DNA of 64,000 nucleotides from Candidatus Spongiisociaceae bacterium (GTDB taxonomy: Bacteria > Actinomycetota > Acidimicrobiia > Spongiisociales > Spongiisociaceae). This document shows, piece after piece, positions 28,856 through 61,109 of the stretch; the first letter of the stretch is position 1, and each line of letters begins with the position of its first letter. The position numbers were made by a program, and so were the translations under genes. Under the pieces are notes generated by a model that ran no database searches, was not told where the DNA came from, and saw only the letters and a list, made by a program, of their open reading frames with translations. The stretch is taken from the NCBI GenBank assembly GCA_965262915.1, contig OZ253564.1, positions 3,936,001 through 4,000,000 of the forward strand, in the 5' to 3' direction.

Positions 28856-30033
28856 TCCCACCTGCCGCTGATCCGGCTCAGGTGCTGGTTTCCTTCGGTC
28901 ACGCGCTTCGTGATCAGGGCATAAGCGTGAGCCCTGCCGAGATCGTGACGTTCTGCAGGGCTGTATCCGTGCTCGGCGCCGATCACCTGGATGATGTCTA
29001 CTGGTCCGGGAGAACGTGCCTGGTTTCCGAGCACGCCGACATCCCAGCTTACGACGTCGCCTTCGCCTCGTTCTTCCTCGGCTCGGAACCGGAGTTATCG
29101 TCCGAGAGCGGGGAGGAGCCGGACTCCCCACCCGGTGAGGTAGCCACCTCGGATCCGAGCGGGGAGCGGTCTTCGTTCGTCGACTCCGCAGATGTCCACA
29201 CTGGTAGCGGGGAATCAGAGCACGAGGAAGAGCCGGACCCGGGTGCCGTGGCCTCACTCTACGAAACGCTCCGGCACCGATCGTTCTCGGAATGGACCGA
29301 GGAGGAGAAGTCCGCCCTCGCCATGCTCATCGCCCGGATCGAGGTCCGGGTACCGCGCCGATGCACCAGGCGACTACGTCCGGCCCCGACCGGAACCCGG
29401 CTAGATCTGCGCAGAACCGTCCGCAGCGCTCTGCAGAGCGACGGCGAAGTCCTTCGCAGATCGTGGAGGCGGCGCGTCGTCAAATCGAGGCGCATCCTGC
29501 TGTTGGTGGATGTCTCAGGGTCCATGTCCACCCAGTCGAGAGCCATGCTGCACCTCGCCTACGGACTGGTGACAAGTACCTTGAATACCGAAATCTTCTG
29601 CTTCGGCACGAGGCTCACGCGGACCACCGAATTGCTCAGGGGACGCGACCCCGACCGCGCCGTCGATCGGGCTTGCGCCGGGGTGGTCGACTGGGCGGGC
29701 GGTACCAGGATCGGTGACTCGCTCGTGTCGCTCCTCCGGGATCCCATCGCCCTCAGGCAGGTGCGGGGATCAGTGGTTCTGGTCGCATCGGACGGTCTCG
29801 AGACGGGGGATCCCGAGTTGATGGCGAGTCAGGTCGCTCGCCTGTCCCGGCTGGCCTACTCGGTCGTATGGATGAGCCCCCTCAAGGCAGATCCTTCCTA
29901 CCGTCCCCTGACCCGGGGCATGCGGCGCGCCTTCCCCCATCTCGATCATCTGGTAGCTGCGGATTCGTTGAACGATCTCGAGAAAGTCGCCCATCTCCTC
30001 CCGATGCTCGTCTCCGGCATCCGCTCCCCATAG
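28852..30033 (+). CDS. VWA domain protein, CoxE-like
   Basis: MIDAS DVSGSM, FGTRLT, GGTRIG and SDG; coupled to coxD. Confidence 0.9.
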   Translation: MIPPAADPAQVLVSFGHALRDQGISVSPAEIVTFCRAVSVLGADHLDDVYWSGRTCLVSEHADIPAYDVAFASFFLGSEPELSSESGEEPDSPPGEVATSDPSGERSSFVDSADVHTGSGESEHEEEPDPGAVASLYETLRHRSFSEWTEEEKSALAMLIARIEVRVPRRCTRRLRPAPTGTRLDLRRTVRSALQSDGEVLRRSWRRRVVKSRRILLLVDVSGSMSTQSRAMLHLAYGLVTSTLNTEIFCFGTRLTRTTELLRGRDPDRAVDRACAGVVDWAGGTRIGDSLVSLLRDPIALRQVRGSVVLVASDGLETGDPELMASQVARLSRLAYSVVWMSPLKADPSYRPLTRGMRRAFPHLDHLVAADSLNDLEKVAHLLPMLVSGIRSP

Positions 30034-30264
30034 CGGCAAGCAGAAGCCGACTACCGGCAACAGGCTGCGCGCGAGCGCGACCCCTCCGCCGGGTTTCCCT
30101 TAGTTCACGGCATCGGAGGCCCTATCAGCAACGACGAGCCGATCACAGCCGTACGTCCGTGGCTCCGAGGCTGGACGTGGTTTGCAAACGCATTCCTGTG
30201 TCTTCACGAGGCTATCCCCATTGGTTATCACCCGTTGTCGTGCTCCTGACCGACGACGGACCGG

Positions 30265-30930
30265 TCAGTTGTTCGGGTTGGGCGGTTCCGCTGCGCTTCT
30301 GATGATCCCGTCGAGGTCACATGCGACCGTGATGCTGTTTCCGATGGTTCCGGGTCGGCGGGTTACCAGAAACCTACGGTCGGCACCGATCATGTCTGCT
30401 GTCTTGTTGAGCCGGGTCATGATCGCGCGGCTCGGGTTGGTCGTGAGCTTGATCTCGATTGCCCAGATCTCGCGTCCGACCCGTACGACCAGATCGATCT
30501 CACGACCTGACGTCGTGCGGAGATGCCAGGCGTCGAAGTCGCGCCCTGTCTGTGTCAGAGCGGTGAGGATCTGGTCGATGACATGGCCTTCCCAACTTGC
30601 ACCCGCCGTCGGTAGTGAGGCGATGTCGTCGTCGGCGCTCATCCCGAGGAGGCTGTGTAGTAGTCCGCTGTCCCGCCAAAATACCTTGGGTCTTTTGATG
30701 AACTGCTTGGCGGGGTTCGTGCTGTAGGCAGGCAGGCGGCGAATGAGGAAGGCCCCTTCAAGATAGTCAAGATAGTCGTTGACAGTGTGATACGAGAGTC
30801 CGAGCGCTCGACCGATGTCGCTGGCGTTCCACTGTTGCCCGTGACGGGCGGCGAGAAGTCCGAAGAGTCGTCGGGTGGTTTGGGCGCTTGCGGGCAGGCC
30901 CCACGAGGGCAGGTCGCGTTGGGCCAGCAA
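30265..30930 (-). pseudogene. C-terminal half of an AAA_14/DUF4143 ATPase
   Basis: KRPKVFWRDSGL, WEG, EIDLV and AIEIK present; the N-terminal P-loop is absent. Confidence 0.75.
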
Positions 30931-31225
30931 CCTGAGGGGGTCGCGTTGCAGTCGGTTTCTGTTTCCACAGCCCCTGACTTCTACTTACCGGCCCTCAGAT
31001 TTCTATTCTCAAGCCCTGTCGCCTCTATATCCGGTGTCGATTACCGGCTCTTGACCGTGACACCGAACACTCTTCAACAGAGCGGGACTGTTCGGGCTGC
31101 CTGGCAGGTTCGAGCCTTCTTCGAGGGGTCTGTAGCGATCCGATCTATGGTGGTGGAGGTATCCTCCAGTTGCTGACGGTTGCGAGACGTAGAACAGCAT
31201 GTAGTCGAGCGGAAGGTAGGCAAGG

Positions 31226-31954
31226 GTGGCTAAACCAACCTCGACAGGCACATGTACGTTGTGCGAGCAGACCTACAGCCGGGCCGGGATGGGCCGACAT
31301 CTCAAGGCATGCCGCAGGAAAGTGGGTCTTCAAAGGGTCGTGAGTGGCCAAGAACCCGTAAGGATCGAGCACGGTCGGAGAGCGGCACGGAGCTACCACA
31401 TCGCTGTCGAGGACCGCTACGACCCTCGCTACTGGATGCATCTCGATCTGCCGATGAATCTGGACCTGCGTGGCTTGGACCAGTTCCTTCGCAACATCTG
31501 GTTGGAGTGCTGCGAGCATCTGAGCGCTTTCTACATCTCAGGAGTGATGTACCGATCAGGCAGCATCCATTGGCTCGAGCCGTTTGGCGGCCGCCGCCCC
31601 GAGACCATGCGATGCGCCGCTCACCGGGTTCTTCATCCGGGACAGAGGTTCAGGTACGAGTACGACCTCGGTACGACCACGGAACTGGCGCTCAGGGTGC
31701 TGTCGGAGCAGGAGGCCAAGCTAGGGAAGGGCATCCGGCTGCTGGCGATCAATGACCCTCCCAGAGTGGTCTGCCACTCATGCGGGACTGCACCGGCGGC
31801 CGTGATCTGCACCGAATGCAGCATGGAAAGCTTTCCGTATCCGGACCGAGGCTACCTCTGTAGCGATTGCAGCACCCGACATGGCTGTGACGACATGGTG
31901 TACCTACCGGTGGTCAACTCCCCGAGAGTCGGAATGTGCGGATACGACGGATAG
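31226..31954 (+). CDS. pRiA4b ORF-3-like protein with N- and C-terminal Cys zinc-finger motifs
   Basis: LDQFLRNIWLECCEHLSAF, YEYDLGTTT, CxxC motifs and VNSPRVGMCGY. Confidence 0.75.
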   Translation: MAKPTSTGTCTLCEQTYSRAGMGRHLKACRRKVGLQRVVSGQEPVRIEHGRRAARSYHIAVEDRYDPRYWMHLDLPMNLDLRGLDQFLRNIWLECCEHLSAFYISGVMYRSGSIHWLEPFGGRRPETMRCAAHRVLHPGQRFRYEYDLGTTTELALRVLSEQEAKLGKGIRLLAINDPPRVVCHSCGTAPAAVICTECSMESFPYPDRGYLCSDCSTRHGCDDMVYLPVVNSPRVGMCGYDG

Positions 31955-32137
31955 GCGCCGCGCGGCTTGACGGGTAGTCGCAGACGGCGACAATGGCATG
32001 AAAGACTCGGAGAGGCGCCACCAGAGAATGGCCGGCCGGCGGCCGGAGTTCGATCGCTATCCCGAGCGCTTGGCGCCGAACACCGGACGCCCGACTTGAT
32101 CTGCTCCGTGCTGGAGGATCTCGGGGTGCCGACACGG

Positions 32138-32625
32138 TGTAGTCGCCGAGATCCTGGGACGCCGTGTTATCCGGCTGAACTGATCAATCTATGGGGCGGA
32201 AGCGTTGGGTCCGGTAACGATGCGGAACATCCGCCCAAGGCTATAACGCATCTACGAGATGCTCGATACCGATCAGAGCCCCCTTAATCGTGGCCCGAGC
32301 CTGGTATCTCGCTACGACGCAGACTTCCTCCTGAAGCCCCCGATCCCGGAGCCGTGACTTCGCTCTTCGAGACACTCCGGCACCGGTCTTTCTCGGATTG
32401 GACCGAGGAAGAGAGTGGATGAGCCCGCTCAGATCCGATCCTTCCCGCCGTCCGTTGACCCGCGGTATCCGGCTGGCTTTCCCCCATATCGATCATCTGG
32501 TAGCTGCGGATTCGCTCGGTGATGTGGAAAGAGTGGCCATCCTCCTACCCAGGCTCGTCTCCGGGATCCGCTCCCCATAGCGGCAAGTGGAAGCCGACTA
32601 CCGGTAACGGGAGCGCGGACCCTCC
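32138..32625 (+). pseudogene. Heavily deleted second coxD-coxE copy
   Basis: Blocks similar to about 28150 (VAEILGRRVIRL), 29230-29310 and 29869-30085, including the stop codon and 3' flank. Confidence 0.8.
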
Positions 32626-32724
32626 TCCCTTGTCTCGGATAGGCTCGACACAGCGTCCCTACCCGTTCCCGCGTACAGAGCGAAACGGCAACGCGGCGCC
32701 GGCGGCGATCACAGGAGTTAACAG

Positions 32725-33411
32725 ATGGCAACCACGAGGAACGACCGGACGACAATCGAGGAGTTCATCATCCCGCGGGGAACCGGCAAGGCCTTCCATC
32801 TGGGCGCGAGCCAGATCCTGCGGATCACCGCCCATGAGGGCAAACAGGTCGCCGACGTCAAGTTCATCAACGCGCATGATCACAGGGAACAGTTCTGTGC
32901 GTGGTGGTCATCGTGCCTGAACTCCGAGCGGCCTAGCAGTCTGATCACCGGCGGTACCAAGAGGATCACGGAACTCTTTTCCAAGCCTCCATGGGAACGG
33001 GTCCTGCTCCGTGTCATCGACGACAAGGTCGGAGACCATCTCTTCAACGGCGCCTGCTCCCCCCGGATCCGCGAACTGATGCCCGAATTCAAGTACCTCG
33101 GCAGCAAGACCTGTGTAGACCTCTTCCGGGAGGTCCTCGCCCCTCATGACATCGGTCTCGAAGACCTGGAAGCCTCCGGCACATTCAACGTCTTCATGCC
33201 GGTCCGCTTCAAGGATGACGAAGCCGGCACCTGGGAGTTCCTTCCACCATCCTGCGAAAAGGGTGACTTCATCGAGTTCCAAGCTGAAATGGACATCCTG
33301 GTTGCCGCAACCTCCTGCCCCCAAGTCGCCATCATCAACGACTACGACCCGAAGGCCATGATGTACCAGATCTTCGAACAACCCCACGAACCGCTACATT
33401 CTGCCCTGTAG
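32725..33411 (+). CDS. DUF1989 / urea carboxylase-associated family protein
   Basis: EGKQVAD, FNVFM, GDFIEFQAEMD and SCPQ motifs. Confidence 0.85.
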   Translation: MATTRNDRTTIEEFIIPRGTGKAFHLGASQILRITAHEGKQVADVKFINAHDHREQFCAWWSSCLNSERPSSLITGGTKRITELFSKPPWERVLLRVIDDKVGDHLFNGACSPRIRELMPEFKYLGSKTCVDLFREVLAPHDIGLEDLEASGTFNVFMPVRFKDDEAGTWEFLPPSCEKGDFIEFQAEMDILVAATSCPQVAIINDYDPKAMMYQIFEQPHEPLHSAL

Positions 33412-33879
33412 CACGACGCCATGAGGCCGTTTACCTCTCTGCCTTCTCCAGGGTGGAAGGTGATCCAGGCACTTGCGGCGAGCACTCTGCTGGGACCTGG
33501 CCTCGATCAAGGGGTCTCAGCAGACCCGTGCCCTCCCCGTCGTCGATAAGTCCCCTCCTCAAGGCGATCATCGTCACCTCCACCAACAACCGGGCCGTCT
33601 TCGGAGTACTCGCCACCAACCGGTTTGCGGTTCTCTGCGCAGTCGCGACGAACCAGCCGTCACGAGTCATCCCGAGGCGATAGCGACGGCCGGGTTGTGG
33701 AACCTGGCGGTGGAGTCCTGGTCACGAAGCCGTGTGATCGCCATCACCCTGCTCCCCGACCTCCATACGATAGGCCCGGGCTAACAACCGGGGGGATACC
33801 GCGTCACGAAGCGCGACCCATCCCGAGGCGACAGTGTCAAGAACCGGGCCAACGCGGGCATACCGGGCGTGTTGGTTGC

Positions 33880-34128
33880 AACCGGACAACTGACTGATCT
33901 GAACGGTCTTGGCCCAGGCCTTGGGGGGAGACGAATTGAGGCTTCGCTGTTTCCGCTTGGAGCCATAAACCCCGCCCCCAGACCGGGGGAGGCCGATACA
34001 GCCCCATAAAGGCGCTCCACACACCAAGTTTCGATTGGGTCAGACCCGCCCCCGGCCCAACGGGCCAACCCCGTCATCGCAGTGGCCCCAAAGAACCGGG
34101 CACCATCCACTATGAGTGAATCTCAGTG
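33880..34128 (-). mobile_element. Transposase-less IS110 left-end relic with a bridge-RNA-like sequence
   Basis: GGGCGGGTCTGACCCAA (34035-34051, reverse complement) is identical to 59444-59460. The junction CACTGAGATTCACTCATAGT resembles CACTGAAATCCACTCATACT. Confidence 0.7.
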
Positions 34129-34134
34129 ATTGCC

Positions 34135-34632
34135 ATCAAGGGGATGACTGAGACCTACAACCGTTTCCACGATCCCCACGAGAACAGGGCCGAGCACCTA
34201 CGTCTACTTCGACGGACCCCAAGCCTTCGCTCAACTCGTTCGACGAATGGACAACGTACCGGGATTGCGAGTCACTCTCCTGCTGAACATCCAGCGGGCC
34301 AGGGGGGACACGACCGCCGCGGACCGGCTTGTCCGGCGGTTCACACCGACCGGTTCTGGGGAACGGACTGGCCGGGCTCGTCCCAGCCCGCCGTCTATTA
34401 CGACCCCCGCTCGCTGGATCCGTCCAGTCCCTCCGGTGTACTGCACGCCAAGGCAGTGGTGGTGGACGACGAGGCCGTCTTCATCACCTCCGCCAACCTC
34501 ACCGGAGCCGCTCTCGACCGCAACATCGAGCTTGGCGTATTGATCCGCCACCGGGCACTAGCCGCCGGCGTCGCCAACCACTTCCAAGGCCTCATCGACG
34601 CCCGACTGTTGAGCCCGCTCCCAACCGCCTAG
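34135..34632 (+). pseudogene. DISARM remnant: methyltransferase C-terminal scrap fused to a frameshifted DrmC-like phospholipase D nuclease
   Basis: GMTETYNRFHDP, then STYVYFDG..., a frameshift near 34345, and LHAKAVVVD...SANLT...NIELG (HKD motif). Confidence 0.65.
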
Positions 34633-34791
34633 ACGACTAGTCCCGAGGTGTGTGGGCCGGCAACCCGAAGGCCATCATGCACCGAATCTTCGAACAGGGG
34701 GACTAGCGACGAGAGGTCCGGGGAATCCGAACAGTCAACCTCAGACCGTGAGGAGGAACGTCGCGGTCGCCGCTGGGCGTCCCTGTGGATT

Positions 34792-36963
34792 TCAATTGGG
34801 CCCGTAGAAGGGGGCTTCCTGGGACAGAACAGTTAGGGTTACCCGCTCTATGAACCTTGCGAGCTCCGGCCATCGGAAATCAACGCCTTGGTAGCAGGTA
34901 GACGATCGACTCTTGGTCAGGATCGCGGCTGTGTTCCCGACGGTCGTGATGGATGCCTCGTATGGTCCTTCAACTGTCCTGGTCAACTCGATGTGAGTAT
35001 CTCCCGTGTCGAGCTTCCAGGCTCCCGCCATGGCACCGGCCGCTTGTCGCTCGGTCGTCTTGTTCATCGCGCCCGGGAGTCCTTCGAGAAAGGCTGCTAC
35101 GTGTGCTGTCGGTTCGGGCACTCCGGGATCGGTCATACGCGACCGAGCGTCCTGAGCAATCAATTCCGATGAGAGGTTGCCTACCCAAACCGATGCTTCG
35201 TAGTGGCCTTCTGCTGTTCGGTCCAGACCAACGTGTATGTCCCCCTTGGAAAGGTCCCATCGGCGCGGGCGCAGTGTGTAATGGGTACCGCGTCTGGATC
35301 CGCGGCGTTCCAGGTGACCGCCGTCGACGAGGCGGTTGAGTATCTTGACCGCAGCGGTCCGGTCCAGGCCTGTGGCGGCTCTCACAGTGGTGTTGGTGAT
35401 GGGACCCGTCACCGCGAGCCCGAGTACCTCGGTGTGGAAGTCTCTACTCTCGATGCGGGTACCGTCGGGTCTTGCGATGTCGGGGCTCAATGCGTAGGCC
35501 GCCCCCGCCCCCCTCCCCTGCTGCTGTAGGAACCCCCCATCCCTGAGGCGCGCCAGCGTCCTGCTCGCTCTAGAGGCGTCCACGTCCAGAAGGTTCCTGA
35601 CCACCGTGTTGGTAAGGGTCTCACCGCGGGAGGCTCGGACAAGCAGACCTAGATCGGACGGTTCAAGACCGGCAGCCAACTCGTCGTCGCCCACCGAGTA
35701 CGGCCGGTGCGCGGCGGCGGTGGCTGATGTGAGGGTCCGCGCGAGCCAGGCACGCTCGCGTGGCGACGCCGCCGAGCCCAACCTGAGCGTGACCGTTACC
35801 GACGAACCATCCGCCTCGAACTCGGGCGGCGCCATCAGGTTCAGCGCCATGTGACGGTGCATCAGATCGACACCACGCCCGGCGTCCTCAGCCACACCGT
35901 AGTAGCGAAGCGTCCTGATGACCAGCACATTGCGAGGGATGGACTGCTGGGAAAGAGTAGCCAAAGAAACACCGCGGGGCAGCCCGCCCGGTGAGCGCAC
36001 CACGACCCGGTCCGGCCGTATCTCCACACGTACCGCTTCGCCCCGCGCTGCGTACGAACGGTGCGCGACGGCGTTGGCGATAGCCTCGCGGACTACTGCT
36101 TGGGGTAGACGATGTAACTCGTGACGCCAGACACCGATCGTGGCCATATCCACACCCAGTTCCTCCAACACAAAGGCTGCGGTGTCGGCCACCTGGTTCT
36201 GGACGGGCCCGTTGAACTCCTCACGGCGGTCGTAGTCGATGCCGTCGTCGCGGTAGCGGAACAACTCCACATGCGCCTTGCCCAAAGCTGCGCCGGGGTT
36301 CGGGAGCAGGAACAGCGCACCGGCAACGCTGAGCCGGTCCCGGTCACCGTTAAGCACCAGAAAACCGTTGTCGCGAAGCCGGGCCGACAATTCCGGCGAG
36401 GTGCCGTTCTGTACCCTCCAGTGCCACGCCTCGGCCAACCGTTGTCCCAGATCAGGATCGATGTCGTCAGAGGTCAGCCCGGTAGGGGAGGACTCCACCG
36501 ACCGTACGAACCGCCTGGCAATGAAGTCGGCGAGGTCCGCGCCCAGCAGCGTATGGTTGGACGCGCCCCTACGCTGCTTGACCTGACCGTTGGGCAACTG
36601 CGCGAACGAGTCCTTGCGCGGAGCCACCGATATAGCGACCACTACGCGGCCGTCAACCCGAAGACGGTGGATCCGATAGCGACCGAGGTCCCGAACCTGA
36701 TCCAGCGCCTGGCGCAAGCGCGTCTCGCTGCCGACACTCAGGTCGGCGCCCTTGACCAACCCTCGGTCGGTCACTCCCACTAGGATCACCCCACCGTCCG
36801 CGTTCGAGAACGCCATCGCCGCTTCGGCGATACGGCCGCGGGAGGCACCCTCCTTGAACTCGACGTACTCGCCCTCAGCAGGGAACTCCGCCGCGAGCTG
36901 CGCGGCGGTGAGTTCTCCTGCCGGTTGAGCCCGGCAACCCGGATGGAACATAGGATATGACAT
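34792..36963 (-). CDS. Schlafen/AlbA_2 + HATPase_c_4 (RecG-C-like) + wHTH protein with a duplicated C-terminal module
   Basis: EGEYVEFKE, AFSNADGGVILVGV, REAIANAVAHRSY, SPGGLP, RN and GRGV motifs; the start is uncertain (36987/36963). Confidence 0.85.
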   Translation of the reverse strand: MSYPMFHPGCRAQPAGELTAAQLAAEFPAEGEYVEFKEGASRGRIAEAAMAFSNADGGVILVGVTDRGLVKGADLSVGSETRLRQALDQVRDLGRYRIHRLRVDGRVVVAISVAPRKDSFAQLPNGQVKQRRGASNHTLLGADLADFIARRFVRSVESSPTGLTSDDIDPDLGQRLAEAWHWRVQNGTSPELSARLRDNGFLVLNGDRDRLSVAGALFLLPNPGAALGKAHVELFRYRDDGIDYDRREEFNGPVQNQVADTAAFVLEELGVDMATIGVWRHELHRLPQAVVREAIANAVAHRSYAARGEAVRVEIRPDRVVVRSPGGLPRGVSLATLSQQSIPRNVLVIRTLRYYGVAEDAGRGVDLMHRHMALNLMAPPEFEADGSSVTVTLRLGSAASPRERAWLARTLTSATAAAHRPYSVGDDELAAGLEPSDLGLLVRASRGETLTNTVVRNLLDVDASRASRTLARLRDGGFLQQQGRGAGAAYALSPDIARPDGTRIESRDFHTEVLGLAVTGPITNTTVRAATGLDRTAAVKILNRLVDGGHLERRGSRRGTHYTLRPRRWDLSKGDIHVGLDRTAEGHYEASVWVGNLSSELIAQDARSRMTDPGVPEPTAHVAAFLEGLPGAMNKTTERQAAGAMAGAWKLDTGDTHIELTRTVEGPYEASITTVGNTAAILTKSRSSTCYQGVDFRWPELARFIERVTLTVLSQEAPFYGPN

Positions 36964-36993
36964 TATCACAAGCCTAATTGAAGGCACTGCATG

Positions 36994-37002
36994 ATTATAT
37001 CA
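36994..37002 (-). promoter_or_regulatory. Extended -10 promoter (TGnTATAAT) for the Schlafen-ATPase gene
   Basis: TGATATAAT on the minus strand in an AT-rich patch just upstream of the CDS. Confidence 0.55.
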
Positions 37003-37010
37003 TAATTGGG

Positions 37011-37115
37011 GATGACCCCCCTATGGATCAACAAGGTGACTGTGGCGGCGGTAACCATTGCTGGTATCGGGTAGCGAGTCGGTGGTTGTGGCGGAGGGCC
37101 GCTCGATTCGTGACG
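37011..37115 (-). mobile_element. IS110 right-end relic (recombinase C-terminus plus RE)
   Basis: HNHRLATRYQQWL vs HNHHLATRYQNWL of the intact recombinase; TTGATCCATAGG...CATC vs TTGACAACCATAGGAGCATC. Confidence 0.75.
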
Positions 37116-37413
37116 TGAGGATGGGAGGGGTAGCCGTACCTGGCTAAAGCGGTTCGAGGAGATCGGTGACCTCGTCCGCTCTCGCCCGTCCCAGACCGGC
37201 GTTGCCCTTCCAAGTGACCATCTTCATGCTCGACAGGGGTCGAGGCGCCTGATCTCACCCGATGGAACCGGTCCTCCATCGAGGGTGTCCGGTTCTGACC
37301 TCACCGGAGCGACCCGGTGGTCGCACTGTGGACAGCGCGTGACGGCATCGGCCGTCCAAGCGGAGTCGAGTGATAAACTCGAATATGGCTGATAATCGAG
37401 AGGTGACCAGCGA

Positions 37414-38289
37414 ATGACGATGAGGCAGTTCGACTACGTTGCACCTACGAGCATTGAGGAAGTGACCGAACTCCTATCGAGCCACGGGAGCGACGCAAAG
37501 ATCCTCGCCGGTGGTCAGTCCCTTGTAATCCTGCTCCGGCAGCGGCTTCTCGCACCCACCGTTGTCATCAGCCTGAGCCGGGTCGAGGCGTTGAGGGGCA
37601 TCACCGATAGCGGCAACGGCCTCGAGATCGGGGCTATGACCACGTATTCGGATGTCTCCCGCAACGCAATCGTCGATCAGGCCGCGCCGACGCTGGCGAA
37701 GGCAGCCGGCTCCGTGGGATCCCGTCACATCCGGAACCGGGGCACAGTCGGCGGGAGTCTGGCCCATGCGGACCCTGCCGGGGATGTGCCCGTAGCTCTG
37801 CTCGCCCTGGATGCATCGATCACCCTCGCCGGACAGGGAACGGTTCGCACCTGTTCATCCAATGACTGGTTCACCGGGTTGTTCGAAGTTGCGATGTCGG
37901 ATGATGAAGTGCTCACCGGGGTAACCATCCCGAGGCCACCGGAGATAGTCAGTCACGGATACCACCGGTTCAGCTACCGGGAAGGTGAATACCCGATGAT
38001 CGTAGCCGCTGCCGTCCTCGGTTGGGATGAGGGAGTGTGCACGTCGGCGCGGGTAGCCATGGGGGGTGTAGGCGCCCATCCACAACGACTCCCCGCAGTC
38101 GAAGACCGGCTGCTGGGCTCCCGAGCGGATGCTCGTGACATCGACGCGGCAGCCGTGATCGCCAGCGAACTCATACATCCACCGTCGGATGTACGCGGCT
38201 CCACAGGGTGGAAAAGAAAGGTAGCGGTGGAATACATGAAGCGTGCGCTTGCGGAAGCGGGCCGGGGTCCGGAGAACGGTCATGGCTGA
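37414..38289 (+). CDS. Molybdenum hydroxylase FAD-binding subunit (CoxM-like)
   Basis: LAGGQSL and RNRGTVGGSLAHADP motifs. Confidence 0.92.
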   Translation: MTMRQFDYVAPTSIEEVTELLSSHGSDAKILAGGQSLVILLRQRLLAPTVVISLSRVEALRGITDSGNGLEIGAMTTYSDVSRNAIVDQAAPTLAKAAGSVGSRHIRNRGTVGGSLAHADPAGDVPVALLALDASITLAGQGTVRTCSSNDWFTGLFEVAMSDDEVLTGVTIPRPPEIVSHGYHRFSYREGEYPMIVAAAVLGWDEGVCTSARVAMGGVGAHPQRLPAVEDRLLGSRADARDIDAAAVIASELIHPPSDVRGSTGWKRKVAVEYMKRALAEAGRGPENGHG

Positions 38290-58111: not shown

Positions 58112-59411
58112 GTGGAAGCTGATCCCTGCGCGCATGTGCGAGTTGTTGGTAGGCCTGGGCGACGTTGATCTGGTGGGGATCAACGACTCGGGCGAGGGTG
58201 CACCTCTTGAGGTGGTGATCGGGTCCCGCAAGGCCCGCCCGTTGTGTGTGGCGTGTGGCGGCCCGGTGTGGTCCAAGGGTGAGCGGACGGTTGTGTTGGT
58301 GGATTTACCGGCGTTCGGTCGGCCTGTGCGGCTGCGGTGGCGGAAACGCCGTTGGACGTGCCCGAACCCCGACTGTGAGATCAGATCGTTCATCGAACAA
58401 GACCCCACGATTGGTCCCCAACGGGCGTTGTTGACATCCCGAGCGGCGCGGTGGGTGACCATCCAGGTCGGTCGGCGGGGCCGTCCGATCCAAGAGGTCG
58501 CCGCAGAGTTGGGTTGTGATTGGCATACGGTGAACAAAGAGGTTGGCCGCTGGGGCGAAGCGCTGCTGGAAGCCGACACCGATCGGGTCGGGACCGTCGA
58601 AGCTGTGGGAGTGGACGAGACGTTGTTCTGGCGTCGGGGCCGTTGGCGTACCAAAGTCTGGTGCACCTCTGTCGTCGACGTTGGCGGCCACCAGCTGATC
58701 GACATAGTCCCTGGTAGAACAGCAGAAAGCGCCGCAGCCTGGTTCCGGGCGCAGCCCACCGAATGGTGTGAGGCTATCCGCTGGGCGGTGTTGGACATGT
58801 CCGGTTCGTATCGGAAGGCGTATGACAGGGTGTTACCGCACGCTCTGCAGGTAGCGGACCCGTTCCACGTCATACGCCTCGCCAACCAGCGTCTCGACGA
58901 GGTACGACGCCGCACCCAGAACGAAACCCTCGGGCATCGAGGCCGCAAGGATGACCCGCTGTATCGGATACGGCGGCTCCTAACCGCTGCGCATGAGAGG
59001 ATCAGCGACCGGGGTCAAACACGGCTGCGTGGCCTCCTCGACGCTGGTGACCCCCACGGCGAAGTGCGCACAGCCTGGCACGCGAAAGAGACGGTACGAG
59101 GCATCTACGGGATCGAAAGTCCGGTCCTTGCTCTCCGATACACCCTCGGGCTCGCAGACGACCTCCAAGACGAATCCTGCCCACCCGAGATCAACAAGCT
59201 CGGACGTACCATCGCCCGCTGGACCCCCAGATCACCAACTGGCACATCTCGAAGGTAACCAACAGATGCCACCGAAGCCCTCAACAACCTAATCAAACGC
59301 ATCAAACGAGCAGCGTTCGGGTTACCCAACTTCGCGAACTACCGAATCCGCGCCCTTCTCTACGCCGGGAAACCCAACTGGGACCTACTCGCCACCGTCA
59401 CTCCCCACTGA
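58112..59411 (+). pseudogene. ISL3 transposase (frameshifted)
   Basis: Zinc ribbon, GVDE, LDM, DPFHV and TEALNNLIKRIKRAAFG motifs; single-base shifts near 58125, 59227 and 59267. Confidence 0.88.
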
Positions 59412-59430
59412 AATCCACTCATACTTAGAA

Positions 59431-59610
59431 GGTTCCTGGGCTAGGGCGGGTCTGACCCAACTGAAATCTGGCCTTGTGCCTTTTCATCGATCTGTCGGCC
59501 CGTTCCCGGCCTAGGGCGTAACCCCCTGACCCGGGGCGGATGTGACCTAATAGGAGCCTTCAACTTCTCCACCGTGAGTGGCCTGTCCAACCGCACACGG
59601 GTCCGGGATC
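59431..59610 (+). ncRNA. Predicted IS110 bridge RNA (target-binding and donor-binding loops)
   Basis: Stem 59444-59456/59494-59505 encloses ACTGAAATC and TCATCGAT, which match the target. Stem 59528-59533/59598-59603 encloses ATAGGAGC and TGAGTGG, which match the donor. Ends are approximate. Confidence 0.8.
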
Positions 59611-59645
59611 ATAAGTGAGTCTATCCCCTAGAGGAGAAGAGCATC

Positions 59646-60875
59646 ATGGGAGAAGCAGACCAGATTATCTACGGTGGGGTTGACACCCATCGGGACGTCC
59701 ACGTAGCAGCGGTGGTGGATGGCGTCGGGCGGGTACTGGGATCGGAGTCTTTCGCGGTGGAGGAATCCGGTTATCGGCGAATGGTCACCTGGTTCGAGTC
59801 GCGGGGACAGTTGGTTCGGGTTGGGGTGGAAGGAACGGGTAGTTACGGCGCCGGCCTGGCCCGTTACCTGACCGAGATGAACATCGAGGTGGTGGAGGTC
59901 AACCGCCCCAACCGCCAACTACGCCGCCAGAAGGGCGGCAAGACCGACAGCGTCGACGCCGAGGCGGCAGCTCGGGCAGCTGCCTCGGGCGAAGCAACCG
60001 CGGTTCCCAAGTCCGGTGTGGGCCCGGTCGAGTGCATACGGATGCTGTGGGTGGTGCGCCGCTCCGCGGTCAAGGCCCGCACCCAGGCCGCTAACCAGAT
60101 ACATGCGCTGGTCGTAACAGCTCCCGAGCCGCTAAAACACCAGCTAAAGGGCATGAATCTCAAAGCACGGGTCAAAACCTGTGCCCGGTTCCGACCCGGC
60201 ACAGACCACACCACCACCGCGTATGCGAAGCGTGCCCTACAGCATTTGGCCCGCCGGTATCAGGCCCTCGACGTAGAGATCGCCCAACTCGAAGCCGAGA
60301 TCCGGCGTCTCTGCGCCCAGGCCAACCCGGCCCTGCTGGCCACAGAAGGTGTCGGTCCTGACACAGCCGCCGCGTTGTTGGTCGCCGCCGGCGACAACCC
60401 CAAGCGAATGAAATCGGAACGGTCTTTCGCGGCGCTGTGCGGCGCCAGCCCCGTCCAGGCGTCATCAGGACGAACCCTTCGGCATCGTCTCAACCGGGGC
60501 GGCAACCGCCAAGCCAACAACGCGCTATGGCGGATCGCTACCACCCGGATGCGCACCGACGCCGCCACCAAAGCCTACGTGGCACGACGCAAGGCCGAGG
60601 GCAAGAAGAAAAAGGAGATCATCCGCTGCCTCAAGCGGCACATCGCCCGAGAAATCTACCGGCTCCTCACCAACCCGCACCCAACCCCGAACTGCGCCCG
60701 CCTACGCACCCGACGCCAACAACGCGGCATCACCCTCACCCAGACCGCCCAAGCCGTCGGAACCCACCCCAATCGCATCTCAGCACTCGAACACGGCCGA
60801 GACCACAACCACCACCTCGCCACCCGATACCAGAACTGGCTGCACACCCACCAAACCGCCCCATCATCGATTTGA
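59646..60875 (+). CDS. IS110 family recombinase/transposase with a C-terminal XRE-type HTH
   Basis: GVDTH, GVEGTG, KTDSVDA (DEDD), ASSG catalytic Ser and HRLNRGGNR; extra RLRTRRQQRGITLTQTAQAVG...ISALEHG. Confidence 0.93.
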   Translation: MGEADQIIYGGVDTHRDVHVAAVVDGVGRVLGSESFAVEESGYRRMVTWFESRGQLVRVGVEGTGSYGAGLARYLTEMNIEVVEVNRPNRQLRRQKGGKTDSVDAEAAARAAASGEATAVPKSGVGPVECIRMLWVVRRSAVKARTQAANQIHALVVTAPEPLKHQLKGMNLKARVKTCARFRPGTDHTTTAYAKRALQHLARRYQALDVEIAQLEAEIRRLCAQANPALLATEGVGPDTAAALLVAAGDNPKRMKSERSFAALCGASPVQASSGRTLRHRLNRGGNRQANNALWRIATTRMRTDAATKAYVARRKAEGKKKKEIIRCLKRHIAREIYRLLTNPHPTPNCARLRTRRQQRGITLTQTAQAVGTHPNRISALEHGRDHNHHLATRYQNWLHTHQTAPSSI

Positions 60876-61109
60876 CAACCATAGGAGCATCGATGAGCCG
60901 GATAAGAGCGGCGGAAGGCTGCAGTCCGTTCAGTTTGCGGGTTCGGTGCGGGAGAAATTGGGAGCGCAGCGTGGTGTCCTCCGGCACACCCCTGGCGAGA
61001 AGGTTACGAACGGCAGGTGCATCTCCGAGGCGCTCGGTTGCAACACAATCTCGTTCGCCACGCGCGATGGAGGCCGTGTCTGGCCACAAACCGGATACCT
61101 CGCAGAAGC

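Follow-up and report, generated by a model that had tools for sequence, protein, structure and literature searches.

A solitary IS110 left end with a single target-binding loop, very probably a decayed remnant, in the genome of a Spongiisociaceae bacterium

The genome of a Candidatus Spongiisociaceae bacterium (GCA_965262915.1, contig OZ253564.1), assembled as a single contig of 5.06 Mb, carries 36 left ends of IS110-family insertion sequences (ISs). In the window studied here, the whole 64,000-nucleotide stretch at positions 3,936,001-4,000,000, a sequence at 33951-34118 on the minus strand resembles such a left end and stands alone, raising the question of what this orphan is and whether it still acts (coordinates refer to the window unless given as genome positions). 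An initial annotation had described it as an orphan bridge-RNA-like sequence, either a non-autonomous element or trans-acting guide that could retarget a recombinase, or a decayed relative. Our results favour the latter: the orphan is very probably a decayed, solo, truncated left end of an IS110-family element of the B-lineage, as indicated by its truncation, its missing parts, the worst model score of any full-length loop, a lost motif and a misfit between guide and flank. It is an ordinary finding, and the map of scaffold and guides to which it had pointed is correct.

A left end without the rest of the element

The orphan is half a bridge RNA, made of a left terminus, a leader and the first, target-binding loop only (Table 1). 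A profile of 11 full elements taken across the subfamilies (nhmmer) was aligned to 34118-33951 over its positions 1-128 of about 1485 (E 8e-12), and nothing downstream of 33951 was aligned at full sensitivity. The relatives go on from there with ...AAGCGGA-TGTGACCTTGTAGGAGC... into the second loop, whereas the orphan goes on with unrelated single-copy DNA: no second copy of the sequence past 33951 was found in the genome by blastn, and for 33682-33951 a search of 30 relatives gave nothing. Neither the left-donor nor the right-donor motif was found after the loop. The right-end motif (...CATAGGAGCAT) was not found within 3 kb downstream, searched as a 21-mer with up to 4 mismatches and as a 12-mer with up to 1 mismatch. 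The initial annotation had also stated that no recombinase follows, and indeed none was matched within 6 kb downstream; with tblastn (E up to 10) over 30000-38000, the sole match was a 13-residue piece at 37053-37091 (E 0.002), which lies upstream, in a separate right-end fragment. The minus-strand open reading frames (ORFs) over the orphan, at 33781-34110 and 33722-34027, belong to no Pfam family and were rejected as coding on that ground; seven further ORFs in 33421-34022 gave none either, even with E up to 1. At the gathering thresholds of Rfam, tRNA was the sole match in the window, and the orphan and the intact left end described below returned no family, their matches being at chance level (mir-326, E 0.76; CRISPR-DR8, E 0.12).

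The strings quoted in the initial annotation were all recovered on the minus strand as written, at exact positions, and the left-end-like junction CACTCATAGT that it placed upstream lies at 34118-34109; a terminus of this type is present in all 36 left ends listed for the genome. The 16-mer GGGCGGGTCTGACCCA recurs at 59444-59459 on the plus strand, giving 2 matches with up to 2 mismatches where 0.06 were expected (at least 2 in 0/100 shuffles). This second copy belongs to an intact element at 59416, with which the orphan had been compared, but that element is of another subfamily and was the wrong relative: blastn with the intact A-type left end (word 9, E up to 1e-3) did not list the orphan among its matches. 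With the orphan as query, blastn returned 15 other genome loci, the best at 642006-642191 (82.9% over 187 nucleotides), followed by 4462305-4462490 (81.8%), both left ends of a second subfamily, 'B-type', with a longer 5' leader. The kin of the orphan are at genome positions 642006, 4462305, 2009321 and 2806517.

The 11-mer direct repeat AAGAACCGGGC, which had been thought to flank the sequence, is present at 33839 and 34091 as reported, but the second copy (34091-34101) belongs to the left end itself, 17 bases in from the terminus, within a leader hairpin conserved in the subfamily. Because this second copy is inside the leader, the pair does not bracket the element; a direct repeat of at least 11 bases arises in 49/2000 shuffles of the 401-base region, and we attach no significance to the pair.

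Table 1. Parts of the orphan, neighbouring fragments and the intact reference element (window coordinates)
Feature	Position	Strand	Basis or remark
Short repeat TGATGGCAATCACTGAGATT that serves this IS110 subfamily as target; one copy forms the left flank	34119-34138	-	
Left terminus CACTCATAGT: core C and right-donor half-site, includes the -10-like hexamer CATAGT	34109-34118	-	
5' leader with subfamily hairpins; holds one 11-mer copy GCCCGGTTCTT (34091-34101)	34064-34108	-	alignment to B-type left ends
Target-binding loop: outer stem, two guide strands, inner hairpin	33962-34063	-	covariance model R1
16-mer GGGCGGGTCTGACCCA	34051-34036	-	
Left target guide ATCGAAACT, 5' strand of internal loop	34027-34035	-	register from guide/flank match in 36 copies
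Small hairpin GGTGTGTGGAGCGCC	34025-34011	-	
String TT-TATGGG-GCTGT	34010-33998	-	
Right target guide TATGGG, 3' loop strand; specifies CCCATA after core C	34003-34008	-	register from 24 two-ended elements
Damaged invariant junction GCTGT-ATCGGCC	33991-34002	-	family: GATCT-GTCGGCC
String ATCGGCC	33997-33991	-	
Linker and first donor-loop stem bases (..AAGCGGA), end of homology	33951-33961	-	
Unique downstream DNA, no IS110 similarity, no recognisable gene	33380-33950	.	blastn, profile, Pfam
Interior piece (47 bases) of a large gene, ...GMTKTYNRFHDP...	34139-34185		homology to relatives begins only at 34139
Frameshifted PLD-domain fragment	34192-34630		
Separate solo IS110 right-end fragment	37018-37131	-	nhmmer, profile positions 1349-1474, E 1.3e-9; 2.9 kb upstream of the orphan
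Reference intact IS110 element, A-type	59416-60891	+	left end with both loops 59416-59645; recombinase 59646-60875
Intact A-type right end ...CATAGGAGCAT	last base 60890, core C 60891	+	

The reference element and its crossover core

The domains of the ORF at 59646-60875 (409 amino acids), DEDD_Tnp_IS110 (E 1.2e-23) followed in the match list by Transposase_20 (E 1.7e-19), identify the element at 59416-60891 as an IS110-family insertion sequence. This A-type element has nine genome copies with recombinases 99-100% identical, and more than 20 further IS110 copies are found at 69-81% protein identity. The window copy is inserted in an ISL3 element, within its right inverted repeat. Ten ISL3 ends without such an insertion resemble CCCCACTGAAATC|CGATGAGCC, with variants in two, and the occupied ends read ...GAAATC-C-ACTCATA ... 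GGAGCAT-C-GATGAG; comparison of empty with occupied ends therefore gives a crossover core of one base (C). As read directly from the sequence, the second loop of the intact copy carries ATAGGAGC in the same sense as the right end, and also GTGAGTG, which complements the left terminus with one G.T pair.

Structure of the first loop and position of the guides

A covariance model of the first loop, R1, was built without the orphan and gave 36 matches in the genome, among them the orphan at 53.4 bits (E 1.1e-8 genome-wide, 3.1e-10 in another run). The label bridge-RNA-like was right, in that the sequence is IS110-derived and holds a target loop, but the second loop is absent. In an alignment of ten loops from different subfamilies, the structure comprises an outer stem, a large internal loop and a 3-bp inner hairpin, with 9 of the 25 pairs compensatory. 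Over 39 distinct loops from 8 genomes, 92.9% of cells are paired as against 80.5% in shuffles, and 13 pairs change on both sides; none of 500 shuffles reached the paired fraction or the both-side-change count, although fitting this alignment to the model will have biased it towards the structure. Sliding the pairing partners by 1-3 columns left 36-56% paired. RNAalifold, applied to both loops, recovered the first and gave no convincing second loop, and folding of single sequences gave no useful signal (orphan, z -0.79; intact copy, z -1.38).

The function of this loop is revealed by its match to the DNA flanking each element. The 9-base 5' strand of the loop equals the left flank at 9/9 positions in 24 of 36 left ends and at 8/9 in 4 more, with a mean of 7.42/9 over 19 distinct pairs, and the 6-base 3' strand, read as its reverse complement, agrees with the bases that follow the core C in the right flank at 4/6 positions or more in 23 of 24 two-ended elements, with a mean of 4.44 over 9 distinct pairs; neither mean was reached in 5000 permutations. 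The first loop is the target-binding loop, and the two positions that differ between copies are its guides, as had been proposed from two sequences. For the orphan, which has no right end, the register of the right guide is the one set by the two-ended elements. The independent support that the orphan was said to lend to the scaffold/guide map holds, as one more data point for a map far more firmly established from the 36 genome copies, which between them have twelve distinct left-guide strands.

The guide of the orphan does not suit the place where it is found. The flank ACTGAGATT is one copy of the subfamily target repeat TGTTGACGATCAyyGAAATT|CCCCAC, of which occupied and empty copies exist at other genome sites; the left guide ATCGAAACT agrees with it at 5/9 positions, and the B-type guide ACTGAAATT would fit it at 8/9. 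Six of the 36 left ends fit at 6/9 or less, all but one of them solo pieces or stumps; such a poor fit accords with an origin by rearrangement or with guidance from another copy. The orphan guide differs by one base from ATCGAAATT, the guide of a 5'-truncated copy at genome 1499770, near 1499849. The exact predicted target, ATCGAAACT-C-CCCAT, does not occur in the genome; the best sites are two with 1 mismatch, outside the repeat family, and the repeat copy at genome 4414733 has 2 mismatches. None of the IS110 left junctions in the genome contains ATCGAAACT.

Elsewhere in the genome, a full A2-type copy (3663632-3665110, minus strand) occupies a site that misfits its own guides (left 5/9, right 1/6) and fits C-type guides (left 8/9, right 4/6); this copy may be a footprint of trans guidance between subfamilies.

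Lesions in the conserved scaffold

Among the 36 loops, 34 scored 71.2-98.5 bits with R1; the lowest value, 30.4, belongs to a 5'-truncated copy, and the orphan is second lowest overall and the lowest-scoring full-length loop. Of the 36 genome copies, 35 retain the motif GATCTGTCG[GA]C where the loop ends on its 3' side, the sole exception being the orphan, which reads GCTGTATCGGC. Changes at the 31 near-invariant columns (at least 95% conserved) were counted by leaving out each of 34 distinct full-length loops (6 genomes) in turn; the orphan has the most, 5, the other 33 loops having 0-3 and 25 of them none. Its inner hairpin has a C>T. Two further substitutions, A>C at column 88 and C>G at column 90, fall in the invariant GATCT beside the right guide, and a G>A at column 92 turns the closing pair into C.A, the sole broken instance among 37 sequences. 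The fifth change is a one-base deletion in the outer stem. By analogy with IS621, whose handshake guide is A81/U82 (PMC11208158), the changed 'AT' of GATCT, just 3' of the right guide, would occupy the handshake-guide position. No loop with the variant junction of the orphan was found in the species-representative genomes scanned, a scan made without a positive control, and its guide context likewise had no match in species-representative genomes.

Promoter of the family

Joining the right end of the intact copy to its left end, as in a circle (60860-60891 with 59416-59430), gives TTGACA-17-CATACT. While integrated, this copy has 3/6 matches at the -35 position; integrated copies have mostly 1-3/6, and four solo or stump copies, the orphan included, have 4 or 5. 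The integrated context of the orphan reads ATGGCA-16-CATAGT (8/12). A promoter/terminator scan detected nothing at the orphan, nor at the intact copy. The -35 box of IS621 is likewise in the right end (PMC11208160), and integrated copies express the RNA only weakly (PMC13626964). For a solo left end, the promoter of the right-end/left-end junction is lost for good.

Decay, split guide or hidden element

Several observations weigh against decay. Folding of the loop survives, with 22 of 25 model pairs intact and a G.U pair preserved by the C>T change, so that the earlier statement that stems and linkers are kept stands for the pairing and falls for the 5 of 31 near-invariant columns that have changed. 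The guide is a sensible one, being a variant seen in the target repeat itself (GATCATCGAAACT at genome 4414733), and the flank ATCGAAATT of a stump at genome 1432928 fits it at 8/9 as against 6/9 for the stump's own guide. Relative to the closest scaffold (B2-type, L023), 9/17 guide columns and 10/73 scaffold columns differ (Fisher p 0.001), a concentration expected from guide reprogramming and not from random decay. No guide excess is seen relative to the B-type copy L019 (4/17 guide, 21/74 scaffold columns), and relative to the A-type copy of the window 8/17 guide, 16/50 stem and 12/23 other columns differ. Guides evolve faster than the scaffold between lineages; this is a property of the family and therefore no evidence that the orphan copy is in use. 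The absence of the second loop would not by itself bar activity, since engineered split bridge RNAs work, according to a preprint (bioRxiv 10.1101/2025.05.14.653916). A metatranscriptome contig of 152 nucleotides (depth 3.9) covers 33903-34033 without mismatch, placing nucleic acid of the locus in an RNA preparation, although contigs of this kind give neither strand nor ends and DNA carry-over is possible. This contig departs from the locus at 34033, inside the left guide, and is therefore not a transcript of an intact loop; it runs into 21 bases resembling GAGGCTGCGCGAAAACGTGGG, a terminus-like repeat with several genome copies that agrees with the target of E-type IS110 elements, and the loop may be interrupted in the population from which the library was made. 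The same library has no contig on 34034-34138 or on the rest of 33300-34800, which has no bearing on absence of transcription given the low depth of its contigs. Finally, three DNA runs from other studies list no difference in 33951-34138; this invariance carries little weight because divergence is low (4 differences in 1009 bases, 2-4 per kb or so).

Some of these points also bear on the reading of the orphan as a trans-acting target guide, that is, a natural split bridge RNA whose target-loop-only transcript is used by a resident recombinase. A dimer would then pair the orphan loop with the donor loop of an intact copy and send circles to ATCGAAACT-C-CCCATA. In IS621, the two loops that meet in one synaptic complex seem to be supplied by separate RNA molecules (PMC11208158), and separately expressed loops are active in human cells (bioRxiv 10.1101/2025.05.14.653916). 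The termini are common to the subfamilies (CACTCATA / CATAGGAGCAT), and therefore any donor loop would fit any circle. The A2-type copy at genome 3665110, in its C-type-fitting site, suggests trans guidance between copies in this genome; the plausible guide and the RNA-library contig point the same way. Against this, the orphan is the sole loop of 36 with an altered GATCT-GTC, including the handshake-guide position and the closing pair, and has the lowest full-length score; it has neither the right-end -35 box nor a promoter-like site; no exact target and no junction bearing its guide exist in the genome, the best sites lying outside the repeat family; and the RNA contig leaves the locus within the guide. 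A trans-acting guide is conceivable in principle, nothing here supports it for the orphan copy, and we regard it as improbable. It is still less credible that the orphan is a non-autonomous element resembling a miniature inverted-repeat transposable element and mobilised by the recombinases of intact copies. The left terminus and the right-donor half-site are intact, and there is a precedent in the orphan ssr9 modules of ISPpu9, which form their own circles (PMC12288879). The orphan, however, has no right-end motif within 3 kb downstream and no donor-binding loop, it is single-copy with no genome match beyond 33951, and one copy of its supposed 11-bp flanking repeat lies inside the left end. 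Just as doubtful is the reading as the left end of a complete, very divergent element with its second loop and recombinase unrecognised. A MAFFT pairwise alignment does show scattered identities past the break, but the full-sensitivity profile search stops there, tblastn found no downstream piece of a recombinase, the seven ORFs have no Pfam family, and only about 540 bases separate the break from the DUF1989 gene on the other strand.

Returning to decay of a truncated left end, a deletion with an edge at 33951 would have taken the donor-binding loop, the DEDD recombinase gene and the right end, and spared the left terminus, the 5' leader and the target-binding loop. The right-end -35 box, which the strong promoter of the family would need to have joined to the left-end -10 at the circle junction, has been lost as well, and the remaining loop has begun to decay at positions kept in every other copy. 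Homology, boundaries, missing parts, scaffold lesions and the misfit of guide and flank are observed; we infer that these lesions abolish function and that the loss occurred by deletion or rearrangement in a decaying, IS-rich region. With neither a right end nor a donor guide, the orphan is unable to move, and most likely it does nothing now.

Genomic surroundings

In comparison with two sister species, the DUF1989 gene has additional DNA within its 3' end, at 33380-34660. An imperfect 33-bp repeat of this 3' end (29/33; 33347-33379 and 34663-34695) bounds the extra DNA, which contains the orphan, 20 bases of the target repeat, the 47-base gene piece and the frameshifted PLD-domain fragment. 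As its neighbours in the extra DNA are gene fragments, the orphan lies in a mosaic of broken pieces. The large-gene piece and the PLD fragment are about 8 kb apart in two other species; GMTKTYNRFHDP in the former is what we take to be a methyltransferase motif. The DUF1989 gene, on the opposite strand, starts some 540 bases past the break of the orphan.

The right-end fragment at 37018-37131 terminates in CCATAGGGGGGTCATC|CCCAAT. It was considered as the other half of the same element and rejected, as profile positions 128 and 1349 do not meet; the region of the AlbA_2-type gene, syntenic with a sister species from 34661 on, also rules this out. The fragment stands just upstream of that gene, which encodes 731 amino acids with AlbA_2, HATPase_c_4 and MarR-type domains (34792-36987).

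Relation to known systems

Genomes with expanded ISs hold solo IS fragments in which one end is left after deletion or rearrangement. Nothing essential distinguishes the orphan from these; its one peculiarity is that a guide loop happens to have survived whole. On its own it is an ordinary relic, showing how an RNA-guided IS decays, with the guide loop outliving the enzyme.

The family organisation is that of IS621 (Durrant et al. 2024, PMC11208160; Hiraizumi et al. 2024, PMC11208158). The RNA is encoded in the left end, upstream of a recombinase with DEDD and Transposase_20 domains, and both target guides are in the first loop, its 5' strand reading like the left target and its 3' strand complementary to the right one. 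An invariant dinucleotide follows the right guide where the handshake guide would sit (PMC11208158), and the promoter forms at the right-end/left-end junction (PMC11208160). The core differs, being the dinucleotide CT in IS621 and a single C in this family, and the orphan differs further in having the first loop only, with no donor loop, recombinase or right end.

Engineered split bridge RNAs (Perry et al., bioRxiv 10.1101/2025.05.14.653916) share with the orphan a target loop without a donor loop, and split-guide use would be the only way in which the orphan could still act. The engineered loops, however, combine an intact scaffold with a strong promoter, whereas no promoter-like site was detected at the orphan and five conserved positions of its scaffold are damaged. 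The ssr9 orphan modules of ISPpu9 in Pseudomonas putida (PMC12288879) are likewise IS110-family RNA-gene modules unlinked to a recombinase gene; they have both end boxes and excise as circles, whereas the orphan has one end and a single copy. A non-autonomous element of that sort, as the initial annotation had envisaged, is not borne out here, no right end being found within 3 kb.

If the trans-guide reading were true of the orphan or of the better-kept solo loops described below, natural bridge systems would use split guides and dead elements could still steer live ones, which bears on how IS110 elements acquire new targets. The genome offers a natural test bed, with its twelve left-guide strands, what looks like mutual targeting of its IS110 lineages and one apparent cross-guided insertion.

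Other solo loops

The initial annotation had proposed a genome-wide covariance search for more orphans. The search yielded three more solos among its 36 loops, the orphan itself being the most damaged. Seven of the 36 loops are not followed by donor-loop motifs. Three of these are interrupted by a 1.47-kb IS110-type element, with their own recombinase 1.6-1.7 kb further on, and four have no recombinase within 6 kb: the orphan and those at genome 341564, 293142 and 4427016, which score 75-95 bits and are better kept than the orphan. Further IS110 stumps are found at genome 1432928 and 1499770. No right end was found within 3 kb of any solo in this genome. In the relatives, 7 of 21 loci with at least 1459 nucleotides of downstream sequence lack the two donor-loop motifs as well as a recombinase, but six of these seven are interruptions by the 1.47-kb element and not true solos.

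These solo target-loop left ends, at least four here, might be natural split bridge RNAs forming a heritable 'guide library', an idea to which we give little credence. Solo loops would then lend new target specificities in trans to some 30 resident IS110 copies and outlive their parent elements, and the A2-type copy at genome 3665110 would be a footprint of trans guidance.

Apparently nested IS110 insertions and minor observations

The 1.47-kb element encodes a 406-amino-acid protein with DEDD_Tnp_IS110 and Transposase_20, and interrupts the donor-binding-loop DNA of IS110 copies in opposite orientation at a fixed point, ..TGATAG | GAGCC... It interrupts three copies, belonging to two subfamilies, in this genome (287177, 3638426 and 4421953; loci L014, L025, L030 and L062) and at six loci of five sister genomes (L034-L038 and L061). 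Its left end reads AGGCTCCT-hairpin-TGCTGATAG, and by eye both arms fit the two sides of its site, so that it looks like an IS110 lineage targeting the bridge-RNA gene of another. The break of the orphan was considered as a footprint of this element and rejected, as the element inserts 17 bases further on (..GATAG|GAGC).

The D-type guides (left ..ACTAGACAC, right specifying CCCAG) fit, again by eye, the junction created by the interruption, GATAGACA-C-CCCAGG. At a sister locus (L050, G007:C75), a further left end is inserted exactly at this junction, and at genome 288909-290128 (L015, L016) a D-type right end abuts an IS-Y-like terminus. These arrangements, examined by eye and with no statistics, point to nested, mutually targeting IS110 insertions.

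Beside the intact IS110 copy of the window, the transposase gene of the ISL3 element (58134-59411) has a frameshift near 59258; its final 47 residues (..NWDLLATVTPH*) are in another frame, with the stop at 59409-59411. In the IS110 recombinase (59646-60875), residues 351-386 give a C-terminal helix-turn-helix (HTH) match after Transposase_20 (HTH_31, E 3.6e-6; HTH_3, E 1.7e-5).

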